Assembly (NCBI GenBank): GCA_049976425.1
Contig: JBMFIG010000037.1
Location: forward strand, 1 to 11,610
From: Thermoproteus sp.
Lineage (GTDB): Archaea > Thermoproteota > Thermoprotei > Thermoproteales > Thermoproteaceae
Direction: 5' to 3'
DNA length: 11,610 nucleotides
The translations under genes were made by a program, and so were the position numbers. The notes below the pieces were generated by a model. It was not told where the DNA came from. It did no database searches and worked only from the letters and a program-made list of their open reading frames with translations. This document shows, in pieces, positions 2,218-9,580 of the stretch. Positions within the stretch are counted from its first letter, which is position 1. Every line of letters begins with the position of its first letter.

Positions 2218-2670
2218 ATGGTGAGGCTCGCGATAGTGGTGGCCGAGTTCAACTACGACGTGACCCAGCTCATGTTACAGAAGGCTCTGGACCACGCCAA
2301 GTTCTTGGGAGCCGAGGTGACCTACGTGGTCAAGGCGCCGGGCGTCTTCGACGTGCCGGCTCTTCTGGCCGAAGTGGTGAAGAAGGAGGAGGTCGACGCG
2401 GTGGCCGTCCTGGGCGCGGTAATACAAGGCGCCACAAAACACGACGAGCTGGTGGCTAACCAGGCGGCGCGCAAGATACTCGACATCTCGGTCGACAGCG
2501 GGAAGCCGGTGGCCCTCGGCGTGATCGGGCCCGGCGCGAACAGAATGCAGGCCCTCGAAAGGGTAGAGGAATACGCGCGGAGGGCAGTGGAGGCGGCTGT
2601 GAAGATGGCGAGAAGGAGGCGGGCGTTGAGGGAGGCCAGATACTCCGGCTCTACCGTGTTTATCGAGTAG
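2218..2670 (+). CDS. ribH: 6,7-dimethyl-8-ribityllumazine synthase
   Basis: Motifs [27 protein letters not shown] and KPVALGVIG; 150 aa. Confidence 0.95.
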
Positions 2671-3208
2671 GCTCCAGTATATTCAACATCTCCCAGACGG
2701 CTTTCATGACCTCTATCTCCAGCTTGAGCTTGGCGTAGACGTCCTCCTCTATGGCTCCGGCCGAGTAGGCGTCCTCCACCTTCTTCTCGAGGGCGACCAG
2801 GTCTATCTTGGACAGCTTGTCCTTGGTCAGAGAACGGGCCCAGGCGTATCTGATCCTCGCGTCTATCTGGTCGGTCCTGTCCCTAAGGGCCTTCGCCTTC
2901 TCCTCCAGCTCGGCGATCTTCCTCCTGGACTCCTCGGCGAGCTTGGCGAAGTCCTCCTCAGATATTAGGCCCAGCTCGCGCTTCGCCGACAGGACCTCGA
3001 GCTCCCTCGTCAGCTCCGCGACGACGCCCTCTATCTGCTCCAGCCTGATCTTGACCCTGGCGAGGTCGCTGTCCCAAGAGCCCTTAAGCGCCTGCGACGC
3101 CTCGACGAACGCCCTCCAGGTGTCCTCAACGCCTCTCAGCTTCTCCTCGTACTGCGCGAGCAGTTTGTCCAGCTCGCCGACCGCCACGTAGGCCACGTCG
3201 ACGCTCAT
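2660..3208 (-). CDS. Coiled-coil protein, CdvA-like/SHOCT-like motifs (paralog 1)
   Basis: All-helical heptad pattern with motifs [15 protein letters not shown] and [16 protein letters not shown]. It has a 4-nt ATGA overlap with the upstream paralog and overlaps the ribH end convergently by 11 nt. The CDS is secure; the family call is inference. Confidence 0.8.
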
Positions 3209-3930
3209 GGCAACACCCCCTCCAGCTCTTTTTTAAGCCTCTCGTACGCCTCCTTGGATATCTTGCCCTCCTTAAGCAACTCGTCGAGCTTGCCGAGGGA
3301 GACCCGTAGGTTTATGACCTCGGCGTTTGTCGAGGTCGACAACACTCGTTTGAAGTGTTGCCCGAGGACCTCCTCTATGGAGCTGTACCTCCTCTCCACG
3401 TCCTCCAGAAGGGCCTTCAGCCCGTTCAGCTTCTCCTCTATCTCTTGCCTCGCCTTGTTGTACTGGTCCTCGGGTATTAGGTCCCTCTTCAGCTCGAGCT
3501 CCTTCAAGGCCCTCTCGTAGTTGGCTATCGACGCGCTGAGGAGGTCCAGGGACCTCCGCAGGACCAGCTTCTCGACCTCCCACTGCCTCTTGTAGCTCAG
3601 GACGGAGGACTCGTAGCTGTGCCAAGATTCGTCGAGCTTCTTCAAAAGCTCGTCGTACTTCATCACGACGTTGTCGACGACGGGCTTTATGGCCTTGTCG
3701 AAGTCGGCCTCGGCCCTCTCGACGGCGGCTACCTGGGCCAGCTGCACCACCTGCGCCTGCTCCTGTTGCTGCGCCTGTTGTTGGGCCGGCTGTTGCGCCT
3801 TGTACCTAACGTAGACGGGGCATTCGGCGTAGTTGCCTATGCAGTACCAGTCGAAGGGGTTCACCGGCTTCCCGGTGTAGCCGCAGACGAAGCCGCCCTC
3901 GCTTCTCCTAAGAGCAGGGCAAACGCTCAT
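3205..3930 (-). CDS. Cys4 domain + Gln-rich linker + CdvA-like coiled-coil protein (paralog 2)
   Basis: N-terminal C-x11-C-x13-C-x6-C, linker AQQPAQQQAQQQEQAQ, a coiled coil with LELKRDLIPEDQY and a C-terminal LDELLKEGKISKEAYERLKKEL. It aligns with the downstream ORF. Confidence 0.82.
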   Translation of the reverse strand: MSVCPALRRSEGGFVCGYTGKPVNPFDWYCIGNYAECPVYVRYKAQQPAQQQAQQQEQAQVVQLAQVAAVERAEADFDKAIKPVVDNVVMKYDELLKKLDESWHSYESSVLSYKRQWEVEKLVLRRSLDLLSASIANYERALKELELKRDLIPEDQYNKARQEIEEKLNGLKALLEDVERRYSSIEEVLGQHFKRVLSTSTNAEVINLRVSLGKLDELLKEGKISKEAYERLKKELEGVLP

Positions 3931-3947: not shown

Positions 3948-3963
3948 GTTATATATTTATTAC
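3948..3963 (-). promoter_or_regulatory. Promoter of the coiled-coil gene pair, embedded in the last codons of the upstream gene
   Basis: Minus strand GTAATAAATATATAAC, spanning 33 to 18 nt before the ATG at 3930. Confidence 0.6.
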
Positions 3964-4623
3964 GCTCAGCGCTCTCTTAGCCTCGGCGAGGTCCTGGAGG
4001 GTGCCCACGTCGACGAACTCGGCCTTGGACACGTAGACGGCCACGCGGGGTATTAGGGAGCGGGCGAGCTCGTCGAAGTCGAGGTACCTCTCCTCGAGCC
4101 TGCGCAACACGGAGCCCTCGGCCACGTATATCCCCGTCGACACGACGTGTCTAAACCTCGGCTTCTCCCTCCACGCCGCCAGCCGCCCCTCCGCCGTCTC
4201 CAACACGCCGAACCTCACGGCGGTCTCGACCTCGCGCCCCACCACCGTGAGATCGACGGAGGACCTCGCGTGGAACTCGGCGGCGGCCCTCACGTCGAGA
4301 TCCGTGACGACGTCGCCCGGCGCAACCAACGCGGGCCCCTCGTCTATGTAGTCCCTGGCGTAGTAGAGCTGCCCGGCGGTCCCCAACAGCCTCCTCGACG
4401 GGACGAAGACAACATCGGGGTGCCGCTCGCGGAGGTAGGACCTCAACACCTCCTGCATGTAGTGGCCCACCACGTATATCTCCCTCACTCCGTTCGCCCT
4501 CAGCCACCCCAGCGCGTAGTCTATGATGGCCCTGCCGCCGAGCGCGACGAGGGGCTTGGGCGCGAAGTACGTCAAAGGCCTCAGCCTGGTGCCCAGCCCG
4601 GCGGCTAGGAGGAAGGCCTTCAA
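3949..4623 (-). CDS. Sugar-phosphate nucleotidyltransferase (NTP_transferase family, no LbH domain)
   Basis: Motifs KAFLLAAGLGTRLRPLT..PKPL, LGTAG, GD, FGV, EKP, GIY and DVGT. The true start is inferred at TTG 4623, overlapping the upstream TGA (TTGA), giving 224 aa; the extra 100 N-terminal residues in the ORF track are spurious. Confidence 0.92.
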   Translation of the reverse strand: MKAFLLAAGLGTRLRPLTYFAPKPLVALGGRAIIDYALGWLRANGVREIYVVGHYMQEVLRSYLRERHPDVVFVPSRRLLGTAGQLYYARDYIDEGPALVAPGDVVTDLDVRAAAEFHARSSVDLTVVGREVETAVRFGVLETAEGRLAAWREKPRFRHVVSTGIYVAEGSVLRRLEERYLDFDELARSLIPRVAVYVSKAEFVDVGTLQDLAEAKRALSVINI

Positions 4624-4958
4624 AGGTAGTCCCTCAGCCCGTACTTCTTCAAGTGTTGCTCGATCTTCTTGACCTCCTTGTCCATCTTCTTGGCCTCGAC
4701 CACCAGGTCGGCCCGCTTCTCCTCGGCCCCCTTTGCCTTTATGGTGCAGAGTCCGTCCGGCGTCAGCGCGCGCGCCTCGCAGTAGGCGTACTGGCACCTC
4801 GCGCCTATACACTCGTCGTTGAGCCAGGTGCACCAGAACACTATCTTGTTGCCCCTTATCATGGGCTTCAACGCCTTCTTGCCGCATCTGAAGAGGGAGG
4901 AGCCGTTGGGGCCGAAGGCGCATCTAGGCCCCAGACATAGTTCCCTCGCGCCGGACAC
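4620..4958 (-). CDS. Hypothetical 8-Cys protein (probable metal-binding) with C-terminal helix
   Basis: Eight Cys in two internal repeats (CLGPRC..CGKKAL..C and CIGARC..CEARAL..C); GTG start preceded by AAATTTTAATA; stop coupled to the next start. Confidence 0.82.
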   Translation of the reverse strand: MSGARELCLGPRCAFGPNGSSLFRCGKKALKPMIRGNKIVFWCTWLNDECIGARCQYAYCEARALTPDGLCTIKAKGAEEKRADLVVEAKKMDKEVKKIEQHLKKYGLRDYL

Positions 4959-5913: not shown

Positions 5914-5945
5914 AATTTATTTTACCCCTATATTATCTATTGTGG
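5910..5945. promoter_or_regulatory. Compact bidirectional promoter between the PfkB kinase and the hypothetical gene
   Basis: Only 28 AT-rich nt separate two divergent GTG starts, flanked by the inverted repeat CCACAAT/ATTGTGG. Confidence 0.6.
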
Positions 5946-6445
5946 TCGAGGACCTCCTCCAGCTGAGGAAGGCCATAGAGGAGAAGATAGCCCAGATGGA
6001 GAAGGAGCTCGAGCTATACAGGAAAGTGCTCGCGGCTCTGGACGAGGTGATCGGCAAGAGGTCGTTCACGACGGCGGCCGAGGAGAAGGAGAGGCGCGAG
6101 GCGGCCAGAAAGCCCCTGGAGGTCCAGACCCTTAAGTCCAAGGACGGGGAGGAGCTCGGCGTGGCCGAGATATACGAGGACGAGCTGGTCTTGAGGCCCA
6201 AGACGCCCGTCAAGCTCGAGGGACTCCTCAAGAGGTTCTTCGTCGAGAAGCTCCTGGAGAGATATAGGGAGGAGGACGAGGACGCCGTGAGGCAGGGCAA
6301 GAAGGAGGCGGCCCTCGAATACGAGGTGCAGGAGGAGGGAGGGGCCGTCAAGGCCATCGTGGTTAAGAACTACGGCGACGAGAACAGACGTAGGGACATA
6401 ATAAGGGCGTTTAGGTGGACTCTCGAGAGGGCGCTCAAGAGCTGA
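5942..6445 (+). CDS. Hypothetical protein (N-terminal coiled coil + alpha/beta domain)
   Basis: 167 aa with host-like codon usage, an N-terminal heptad helix ending in RSFTTA and a C-terminal VKNY....R..DIIRAFRWTLER. It resembles an uncharacterised TACK-archaeal family (from recollection, not searched). Confidence 0.85.
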   Translation: MVEDLLQLRKAIEEKIAQMEKELELYRKVLAALDEVIGKRSFTTAAEEKERREAARKPLEVQTLKSKDGEELGVAEIYEDELVLRPKTPVKLEGLLKRFFVEKLLERYREEDEDAVRQGKKEAALEYEVQEEGGAVKAIVVKNYGDENRRRDIIRAFRWTLERALKS

Positions 6446-8247: not shown

Positions 8248-8778
8248 CTATACTCCTCCCTTAAAAATACTTAGGTACAGCTCCAGATACGTGGCGTCGA
8301 CCTTCTCCCTCAAGCCCAGCCTCTCGGCCAGAGCGGATATCTCCGCCTCGGCCTCCCCCACAGATCCCTCTGAGGAGGCGACCGCCTCTATCTCCACGAA
8401 CTGGCCGAGCCCCTCCACGTCGTCTAGGGATACGGTGAGGGGGCCGTAGGAGTAGTACTCGCGCCTCTTCTTTATGACCGCCACTTTCTTAAACCCGAGG
8501 GCCTCCAGCACGGCCTCCACGTCGCCCTCGGCCGAGGCCGTCAGCTCCAGCCGCGCCTTGGCGTTGGACCGCATGCGGGGGCCCTTGTACGACACCTCCA
8601 CGTCGGAGCCGGAGCGCCTCACCCTAAGCGCCTCGTCTGTCTCGGCGAAATCCCTACAAGGATGTTGGAAATAGACGTCGACCTCCTCCTTGGCCTCCAC
8701 GAGAGAGGCGCCGAGCTTTAAAAGCTCCTCCCTGACCTTGCCGAGGTCGGCGCGGTACTTCTGCTCAACCTCCAACAT
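8248..8778 (-). CDS. cyaB: CYTH/triphosphate tunnel metalloenzyme (class IV adenylate cyclase-like)
   Basis: N-terminal ExExK (EVEQKY), DVYF..P.RDF..TDEALRVR, YKGP, KKRR, LDDVEGLGQFVEIE and C-terminal TYLEL. Confidence 0.92.
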   Translation of the reverse strand: MLEVEQKYRADLGKVREELLKLGASLVEAKEEVDVYFQHPCRDFAETDEALRVRRSGSDVEVSYKGPRMRSNAKARLELTASAEGDVEAVLEALGFKKVAVIKKRREYYSYGPLTVSLDDVEGLGQFVEIEAVASSEGSVGEAEAEISALAERLGLREKVDATYLELYLSIFKGGV

Positions 8779-9580
8779 TCTTGCACGGAGGCCTCGCGGG
8801 ATCGGACACGGCTACGCTGAAGAGGTAGCAACGCGACGTGGCCTCGCCGTAGTACGCGCACTCCCTGCAGTCGTCCGGACGGCCGGGCATTATGCGGACG
8901 GACACCTTCAAAGCGGCGGGCCTCGGAGGCGGCGGCAAAACGGGCGGAGGAGGCGCTTGCGGCGGCGGTTGCACGGGTTGTGGGGCGGGAGGCTGAGGCT
9001 GGGGAGGAGGCGGCAACTGCACAGGTTGTGGAGGCAACTGAGCAACTGAAGGAGCCGAGGGGGGCTGTTGTGGAGGAGGCTGTTGCGCTTGCTTCAAGGC
9101 CTCCTCCAACGGCTTTATCTCGGAGACCGGCGGTTGAGGAGGCGGCGCCACGACGGGTTGCACGGGCTGGGTAGGAGCCGAGGGCGCAGGCAATGGGGGC
9201 GGCGGGGGCGGAGGGGCCGCCTGAGGGCCCAGCTGTATGCCGAACTCCTCGCCGGCCTTCTTGTAAACCGCGCTTAGGGCCTTCGACACGTCCTCGGTCC
9301 CCTCCAGTATTTTCTGGCCGTCTATGACGACTGCGGGGAAGGCCGTTATGTTGTACCTCTTGAGTATGGAGACGAGGGAGCGGAAGTGCGGCGGCACTCT
9401 CTCCACTGGCTGGTCCAGCATCTTGACCACTTGATCCGCCGCGTCCTGCCTTATCTTGACCGTGGCGAGCCTGACCCGATCCCTCCTCTCCACCTTCGAC
9501 CTAATCTCCTCGATGGCCTTCTTGAGGGACTCCTCGAGCTCCTGGCTCTTCCCCGATATGACGAACAGCTCTACGTACAC
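8765..9580 (-). CDS. Hypothetical protein: thioredoxin-like domain (no CxxC) + Pro/Gln-rich linker + C-terminal Cys4 domain
   Basis: YNITAFPAVVIDG resembles the thioredoxin cis-Pro loop; about 100 aa of P/Q-rich sequence; C-terminal CRECAYY...RC...DPARPPC. GTG start preceded by CTTAAATA; overlaps the CYTH start by 14 nt. Confidence 0.82.
   Translation of the reverse strand: MYVELFVISGKSQELEESLKKAIEEIRSKVERRDRVRLATVKIRQDAADQVVKMLDQPVERVPPHFRSLVSILKRYNITAFPAVVIDGQKILEGTEDVSKALSAVYKKAGEEFGIQLGPQAAPPPPPPPLPAPSAPTQPVQPVVAPPPQPPVSEIKPLEEALKQAQQPPPQQPPSAPSVAQLPPQPVQLPPPPQPQPPAPQPVQPPPQAPPPPVLPPPPRPAALKVSVRIMPGRPDDCRECAYYGEATSRCYLFSVAVSDPARPPCKNVGG

Follow-up and report, generated by a model that had tools for sequence, protein, structure and literature searches.

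The way in which Thermoproteales divide has long been an open question, and two overlapping genes in a Thermoproteus genome bear on it. The genes lie in an 11,610 nt stretch of DNA (Thermoproteus sp., GenBank assembly GCA_049976425.1, contig JBMFIG010000037.1), the whole of which was analysed and is called the window below. We name the upstream gene A (3205-3930, 241 residues) and the downstream gene B (2660-3208, 182 residues), both being open reading frames (ORFs) on the minus strand of the window. A preliminary description, made from the sequence alone, had taken them for a translationally coupled pair of paralogous, CdvA-like coiled-coil proteins and for a candidate division module in a lineage without FtsZ and Cdv. 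A 2024 review considered crenactin and the arcadins the most likely division machinery of Thermoproteales, acting by a mechanism as yet undiscovered. We found the pair to be a real feature and its CdvA-like nature to be supported. A heterodimer is plausible from modelling, and a division function is proposed by analogy. Together with a PRC-bearing ortholog of CdvA encoded elsewhere in the genome, the pair provides concrete proteins for the study of this question.

The pair has been described before. A was 76% identical to WP_014127748.1 (P0009) and B 78% identical to WP_014127747.1 (P0158), both from Thermoproteus tenax and listed under arCOG03733 and arCOG03734, respectively, in the table of Makarova et al. 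2024 (mBio 15:e00335-24, PMC10936438). Given these identities to the named T. tenax members, the pair found here is almost certainly the published one, A being the ortholog of arCOG03733 (Zn ribbon plus CdvA-like) and B that of arCOG03734 ("coiled-coil protein, CdvA-like", lacking the Zn ribbon). That paper presents two CdvA-related families specific to Thermoproteales, encoded as adjacent paralogs in most of them and considered likely parts of the elusive division system of the order. The published pair likewise consists of adjacent genes with likeness to the CdvA coiled coil, in which only the first protein has a Zn ribbon and a long linker. Nothing of substance differs, and the pair is already known as a computational prediction to which our own reading is equivalent. 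A full-text search for the arCOG number retrieved only Makarova et al. 2024 and its preprint versions. What is added here is the conservation of the gene overlap and of a putative promoter box, a modelled heterodimer, the distribution across the class in the Genome Taxonomy Database (GTDB) and the reuse of the Zn ribbon in other proteins.

The stop codon of A (TGA) is merged with the start codon of B (ATG) in the sequence ATGA at 3205-3208 (minus strand), an overlap that the preliminary description had noted; both ORFs also have precisely the coordinates given there. This 4-nt overlap was kept in 22 out of 22 pairs from the window's family (the family loci; 22 A and 24 B sequences entered the first profiles). 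A box resembling a B recognition element (BRE) and TATA element, CGTAATAAATATATAA, is located at 3949-3964 (minus strand), 19-34 nt upstream of the ATG of A, where it shares bases with the stop codon of the NTP-transferase gene that lies upstream. In all 22 family loci a box of the form CGTAAyAAATATATA was found 19-34 nt before the start of A, with diverging flanks. The spacing of archaeal promoters is known, and on that basis we infer that the box is a BRE/TATA promoter, which would give a leaderless bicistronic mRNA. The earlier claim that the pair has its own promoter is thus backed by conservation of this putative element. The 3′ end of B overlaps a convergent lumazine-synthase gene by 11 nt.

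Three parts were distinguished in A, all on the minus strand. The N-terminal Cys4 module (residues 1-44, 3799-3930) is called a Zn ribbon in the published account. Its cysteines C4, C16, C30 and C37 were invariant in 22/22 A sequences, as were P5, P25, F26, W28, Y29, N33, Y34, E36 and P38. No such cysteines were present in B, in agreement with the earlier statement that only the upstream copy carries this module. In the AlphaFold2 (AF2) model the module had low confidence (pLDDT, the per-residue confidence of the model, 37-66), and both the ribbon fold and metal binding are putative. A low-complexity linker follows (residues 45-75, 3706-3798), variable in length and composition in the alignment, with pLDDT below 50 for residues 28-60. 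It had been described as a Gln linker; a low-complexity linker was indeed found only in A, with the Gln-richness limited to the window's genus, since the corresponding stretch in the sister genus was rich in Pro, Glu, Lys and Ala and variable in length. The remainder is a coiled-coil domain resembling that of CdvA (residues 76-241, 3208-3705), identified from AF2 helices and from hhalign comparison with CdvA, with two helix-turn-helix hairpin motifs, LIPEDQY (151-157) and GKISKEAY (222-229).

Judged by their sequences, A and B are true paralogs, as had been claimed. Composition-adjusted BLASTP aligned A 85-237 with B 13-166 (23% identity, 155 columns, E 4e-8), and all three segment pairs previously quoted for a near-full-length alignment were present in it. 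The Smith-Waterman score of A against B was 138, compared with 43 +/- 8 (maximum 76) for 1000 shuffles of B, none of which reached 138 (z 11.9), and with 58 for reversed B. Profile comparison of the A and B families by hhalign gave a probability of 97.9% (E 4e-13; 22 and 24 sequences), and more diverse alignments gave 99.9% (E 7e-33, 168 columns), against 29-32% for reversed-profile controls. Genome-wide, at E up to 1, A and B were the sole relatives of each other, with 22-23% identity left between them.

For the relation to CdvA, 43 true CdvA proteins were gathered from matches to the Pfam family PF18822, and the A and B alignments were widened with representative hits. With these diverse alignments, B matched CdvA at 94.2% probability (E 1e-7) over 108 columns, in an alignment that paired W45 of B with the invariant CdvA Trp and also paired both hairpin turns. 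For A the probability was 89.3% (E 2e-6), the alignment being offset by one hairpin because the turn motif repeats internally. Reversed-profile controls reached 3-19% (E 1e-3 to 1e-2). When a hidden Markov model (HMM) of CdvA was run with no filters over the 5016 ORFs of at least 90 residues in the genome, A ranked first (E 0.0024) and B was not among the matches listed. An HHpred probability of 99 to PF18822 is reported for both T. tenax proteins, WP_014127748.1 and WP_014127747.1, in PMC10936438. These comparisons bear out the CdvA-like reading of the preliminary description, and the domain shared by A and B is very likely a true homolog of the CdvA coiled coil. On the sequence evidence A and B are nonetheless not CdvA: neither protein has a PRC barrel or an E3B tail, and no CdvB was found in the genome. 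CdvA carries the CdvB-binding E3B peptide on a flexible tail, where it binds the winged helix of CdvB. The absence of a PRC barrel had been noted before, and we obtained no PRC match in A or B.

Other profile searches were mostly silent. Neither protein had a match above the cut-offs in Pfam or NCBIfam, and profile searches of PDB sequences with A and B returned no CdvA row and nothing at E <0.008. A profile of 23 CdvA sequences run over the window's own genome had an ORF of Phe-tRNA synthetase as its sole match (E 0.04). A further CdvA candidate, the ORF at G000:C9:22707-22832, was rejected as not CdvA-like. Two short matches fell below the curated cut-offs and spanned about 25-30 residues: SHOCT (PF09851) in A (residues 212-236, 15.9 bits against a cut-off of 27, E 0.011, the Pfam gathering score not being reached) and GvpG (PF05120) in A (E 0.005) and B (E 0.013).

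In the AF2 models, helices were predicted at residues 56-147, 154-199, 203-220 and 226-238 of A and at 2-78, 84-125, 129-133, 137-149 and 155-178 of B (pLDDT 94.7). The B model consists of a long helical hairpin and a second, shorter one and is helical from residue 2; both models end directly after the last helix. CdvA of S. islandicus (9s9i_A) was superposed on B with a root-mean-square deviation of 1.9 Å over 96 residues (Z 9.5). Its identity of 18% to B was the second highest among the 50 matches listed, one being at 19%.

A 1:1 complex of A and B was modelled in three runs with three controls. The score was 0.68 in each of the three runs and 0.00 in the best of the three controls; 0.68 was reached by 58 out of 80 solved complexes and by 2 out of 110 mismatched pairs, counts that are rough since our own alignments were used. 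At least 66% of the contacts were common to the runs, and the partner pLDDT was at least 82. The predicted contacts were antiparallel, for example between A113 and B20-27 and between A92 and B45. We consider it probable, from these models, that the coiled-coil domains of A and B bind each other as an antiparallel heterodimer. An obligate heterodimer or co-polymer had been suggested earlier; of this, the interface between A and B is what modelling supports.

Word-based protein searches recovered only "hypothetical proteins" of Thermoproteus and Pyrobaculum, falling into 40 clusters with A as the query and 10 with B. Of the 29 genomes in the window's family, 27 gave a match to A and 28 a match to B; the gaps trace to a genome of 73% completeness and to a contig break. 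The A profile matched 107 out of 120 genomes of the window's GTDB class, representing 35 of its 39 genera. With the families of this class labelled f1, f3 ... f15, a second, B-like match directly downstream of A was among the matches listed in f1, f3, f6, f7, f9, f10, f11, f12, f14 and part of f15. When 401 genomes were sampled across the phylum, the A profile matched 57 out of 60 from the class, and full-length matches occurred inside the class only. The 18 matches among 341 genomes outside it were all partial, covering just the Zn-ribbon module, just the last hairpin or no more than 89 profile positions. Only 83 clusters matched at E <=0.001 among 1.84 billion representative proteins. The phyletic survey suggested in the preliminary description thus found the pair to be widespread, with gene order as well as the overlap kept in 22/22 family loci. 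PF18822 itself matched in none of 34 sampled genomes of f1, f3, f15 and f11, as opposed to 152 out of 251 genomes of the phylum. In f4, the one family of the class to retain canonical CdvA and ESCRT-III, CdvA was present in 3/3 genomes tested and Snf7 in 8/9, and the pair was missing (a single match in 9 genomes, at E 0.003 only). Overall, the phyletic pattern of the pair was only loosely complementary to that of Snf7 and tubulin, and few independent lineages were involved.

Some more distant relatives were also found. In f5, which has low G+C, an A-like gene of 264-279 residues with Cys4 was located at L050:1162-1956 (+) and L056:1453-2292 (-). No B-sized ORF (at least 90 residues) was found downstream of it on the same strand, and this lone gene may represent the state before duplication. 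It adjoins a gene whose product we take to resemble DUF790/Bax1 nucleases. The coiled-coil domain typical of A and B was also found at the C-terminus of two longer proteins: P0134 (545 residues), in which the first ~380 residues are largely hydrophobic, an architecture that hints at a membrane-proximal role, and the all-helical P0084 (495 residues).

Matches to the Zn-ribbon profile came from the N-termini of two ABC ATPases and five small Cys-rich proteins, and from that of one truncated ORF holding the start of such an ATPase. The ABC-transporter ATPase-like proteins (L140:645-1838 (-) and L141:575-1774 (-)) and the ORF that is cut short after the Zn ribbon and ATPase start (L142:1513-1968 (+)) all came from one genus of the sister family. 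The small proteins belonged to other Thermoproteota, and three of the five also had a second Cys motif. In protein P0113, the module precedes a region with a Ser/Thr-kinase-like motif. In its distribution over sequences, the Zn ribbon has the character of a portable module. The window itself encodes, at 8765-9580 (-), a protein of 271 residues in which a long Pro/Gln-rich linker separates an N-terminal domain from a Cys motif at the C-terminus, CxxCxYY...C...DPxxPPC; its only Pfam match was a weak one to DUF1525. The same motif ends the proteins at L145:843-1187, L147:979-1353 and L143:1054-1419, which start with an A-type Zn ribbon. The two Cys modules are therefore fused elsewhere and split over two genes 4.8 kb apart in the window.

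The premise that the lineage lacks both FtsZ and Cdv stood in part. Snf7 and tubulin/FtsZ profiles had no match in the window's genome or in any of the 28 other genomes of its family (the sensitivity of the Snf7 profile is considered below), and the genome contains a crenactin-like actin. Neither PF18822 nor the PRC family PF05239 matched in the genome. However, a PRC-bearing CdvA ortholog was present, as a third CdvA-like gene at G000:C5:61742-62398 (+) (locus L110:1501-2157), encoding 218 residues with a PRC-like N-terminus. It was first located by its length and its uracil-DNA glycosylase neighbour and then confirmed by identity and hhalign. The product was 71% identical to WP_014127569.1 (arCOG04054), and its match to true CdvA had a probability of 96.7% and extended over 158 columns, among them the PRC-like N-terminus. 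Its hhalign probability to A and B was 75-86%, with the hairpin motif in common. As a single-protein query it was found in 25 out of 28 other genomes of the family and in 19 out of 31 of the sister family. PMC10936438 reports a diverged, PRC-bearing CdvA ortholog (arCOG04054) for Thermoproteales, and its T. tenax table places the gene next to that of uracil-DNA glycosylase, as in our genome. With such a gene both in the genome and in print, the notion of a lineage with no Cdv at all is outdated. A Vps4_C match just above the cut-off (25.1 bits) came from an ORF of 346 residues (G000:C40:7842-7961 (-)). Since control genomes without Cdv matched likewise, it does not demonstrate Vps4, and the ORF is probably a generic AAA ATPase. 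As far as is known, this order lacks Vps4.

True CdvA is a homodimer, and contacts between coiled coils string the dimers head to tail into polymers. The filaments are antiparallel and double-stranded; the PRC domains hold them together laterally, and CdvA without PRC fails to polymerise. Against this background, we propose that the locus is a two-gene operon in which A would combine a Zn ribbon, a flexible linker and a CdvA-type coiled coil, and B would consist of the coiled coil only. The ATGA overlap would couple translation and supply both proteins in roughly equal amounts, and the two coiled coils would pack antiparallel into the modelled heterodimer. By analogy with the CdvA polymer, this heterodimer could be the repeating unit of a scaffold, to which the PRC-bearing paralog would perhaps supply lateral contacts. 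The single tethered Zn ribbon of each dimer would dock a partner, mirroring the E3B peptide of CdvA. Such a scaffold might serve cell division, or other membrane remodelling, of the class independently of ESCRT-III and FtsZ. For polymerisation, Zn-ribbon docking and the division role we infer by analogy with CdvA, and we put a division or membrane-remodelling scaffold at somewhat less than an even chance. A more specific version, which we think rather unlikely, is that A, B and the PRC paralog form a CdvA-type filament without ESCRT-III that marks or constricts the division site of Thermoproteales, with the Zn ribbon recruiting a partner that generates force or binds the membrane, for which crenactin/arcadins or a membrane protein would be candidates. 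If this were true, archaea would have a third kind of division machinery, built on CdvA-type proteins only, with such a filament at its core. If these proteins polymerise without ESCRT-III, scaffolds of the CdvA type would be older than the ESCRT component of the Cdv system or would have outlasted it.

Several observations weigh against this interpretation, at the level of CdvA likeness, of the complex or of function. By HMMER, A scored 13.6 bits with PF18822 (E 0.068) against a cut-off of 30, B had no match, and the silence of this family over the whole genome was mentioned above. Of the profile checks suggested earlier, CdvA was thus recovered by profile-profile comparison, and both CdvA and SHOCT stayed below the HMMER cut-offs. 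For CdvA, the results together point to a homologous domain and not to membership of PF18822 as Pfam defines it. Shallow hhalign comparison with 23 CdvA sequences gave only 37% for A and 8% for B, values superseded by the wider alignments. The fold search was unspecific. In VIA-align the top matches were generic helical hairpins (4ilo and 3na7, Z 10.8-11.0), ahead of CdvA at 9.5, and Z of at least 8 was reached by 156 out of 48161 chains and, in the other run, by 212 out of 660. The hairpins of CHMP4B, Snf7, CHMP2A-CHMP3, CdvB2 and Vipp1 aligned at Z 9.2-9.8, no better than unrelated hairpins. The Snf7 family, with its five-helix ESCRT-III core, had no Pfam match in A or B. Foldseek, called for earlier as a comparison with CdvA, ESCRT-III and PspA, was run against PDB and gave neither model a match at E <=0.001. 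Because unrelated hairpins reached Z 10-11, the fold alone decides nothing, and we draw no fold assignment from it.

As regards the complex, the test can also be passed by proteins closely related to a true partner. A and B also lack the PRC domain that CdvA needs to polymerise, and archaeal CdvB tends to escape the Snf7 profile, which left even the S. acidocaldarius control below the cut-off. The f5 genomes combine weak Snf7 matches with the A-like gene, and many tubulin-family genes coexist with the pair in f7, f8, f9 and f14, so the pair is not a strict substitute for either. In the genomes G045, G046, G047 and G061, from some families of the class, 4-10 tubulin-family matches in tandem clusters (e.g. 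G047:C25:14468-19479) occur alongside the A/B pair. The genes around A and B in the window are of the housekeeping type and give no hint of division, and no experimental study of these proteins was found in the literature searched.

Among the alternatives to a division scaffold, the one that fares best keeps the same heterodimer and gives it a non-cytokinetic role, either as an ESCRT-I-like adaptor with a stalk of the Vps23/Vps37 type or as a general tether, the Zn ribbon bringing cargo or enzymes to the membrane, the nucleoid or a vesicle bud. A comparison of the architectures of the two families with ESCRT-I Vps23/Vps37 is drawn in PMC10936438, which also relates the hairpin of CdvA to the "steadiness box". 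The reuse of the Zn ribbon on ABC ATPases, small Cys-rich proteins and P0113 fits modular docking, and the C-terminal A/B-like domain of P0134 behind its hydrophobic residues and the coexistence of the pair with tubulin-family genes point the same way. However, the genome yielded neither ESCRT-III nor any further ESCRT component that such an adaptor could feed, and a pair that is near-universal and single-copy in the class suits a core process. We regard this alternative as possible, though on the unlikely side.

It is less likely still, and in our view improbable, that A and B are tandem duplicates forming separate homo-oligomers, with adjacency and ATGA as a relic of duplication. Homodimerisation and homopolymerisation of true CdvA would be a precedent, the A-like gene of f5 stands alone, the accessions of the two arCOGs are non-consecutive in Thermofilum adornatus (table of PMC10936438), and paralogs are the kind of close cousins that can pass the complex test. 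Yet A-then-B order and the 4-nt overlap persist in 22/22 loci despite an identity of 22-23%, adjacency is kept in most families of the class, and the hetero-complex stood well apart from its controls. Least likely, and very improbable, is convergence on CdvA through coiled-coil composition and the common hairpin turn G-x-I-x-E-x-x-Y, which would suit the sub-threshold HMMER scores (with GvpG and SHOCT giving lower E-values than CdvA for A), the unspecific fold search and the low probabilities of the shallow profiles, but not the 89-94% of the diverse profiles (composition-matched reversed profiles: 3-19%), the 108-column alignment of B with its Trp and both turns, the independent HHpred result in PMC10936438, or the top rank of A among the ORFs of the genome.

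Two further ORFs of the window had no Pfam match. One, at 4620-4958 (-), encodes 112 Cys-rich residues and overlaps a long 5′ extension of the NTP-transferase frame. The other, at 5942-6445 (+), between the PfkB kinase and DNA ligase genes, encodes a highly charged protein of 167 residues that is probably a coiled coil.

Three known systems invite comparison with the proposed heterodimeric scaffold. SHOCT and GvpG hairpins share a short turn motif with A, and GvpG also with B. ESCRT-I Vps23/Vps37 combines an N-terminal binding domain, a linker and a heterodimerising helical hairpin, a likeness taken from PMC10936438; no ESCRT-I match turned up in the fold and sequence searches of A and B, which included no dedicated Vps23/Vps37 test. 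CdvA (Sulfolobales, Desulfurococcales and Nitrososphaeria; arCOG04054, PF18822; structures 9s9g and 9s9i) has, very likely, a remotely homologous coiled coil, with the Trp and two G/x-I-x-E-x-x-Y turns in common. Unlike CdvA, which is one protein, A and B are two diverged paralogs without a PRC barrel, A starting with its Cys4 module and B directly with helix 1. They also lack the C-terminal E3B tail, both ending after the last helix (the peptide motif itself was not searched), and no CdvB/Snf7 partner was found in the genome. Helix 1 is longer in A and B, and the turn-to-turn spacing is ~71 residues compared with ~61 in CdvA. The arCOG04054-type paralog, encoded elsewhere in the genome, differs from A and B in having kept the PRC-like N-terminus. 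What A and B would have in common with CdvA is a pair of features: helical hairpins that form dimers, and a recruiting element on a flexible tether.

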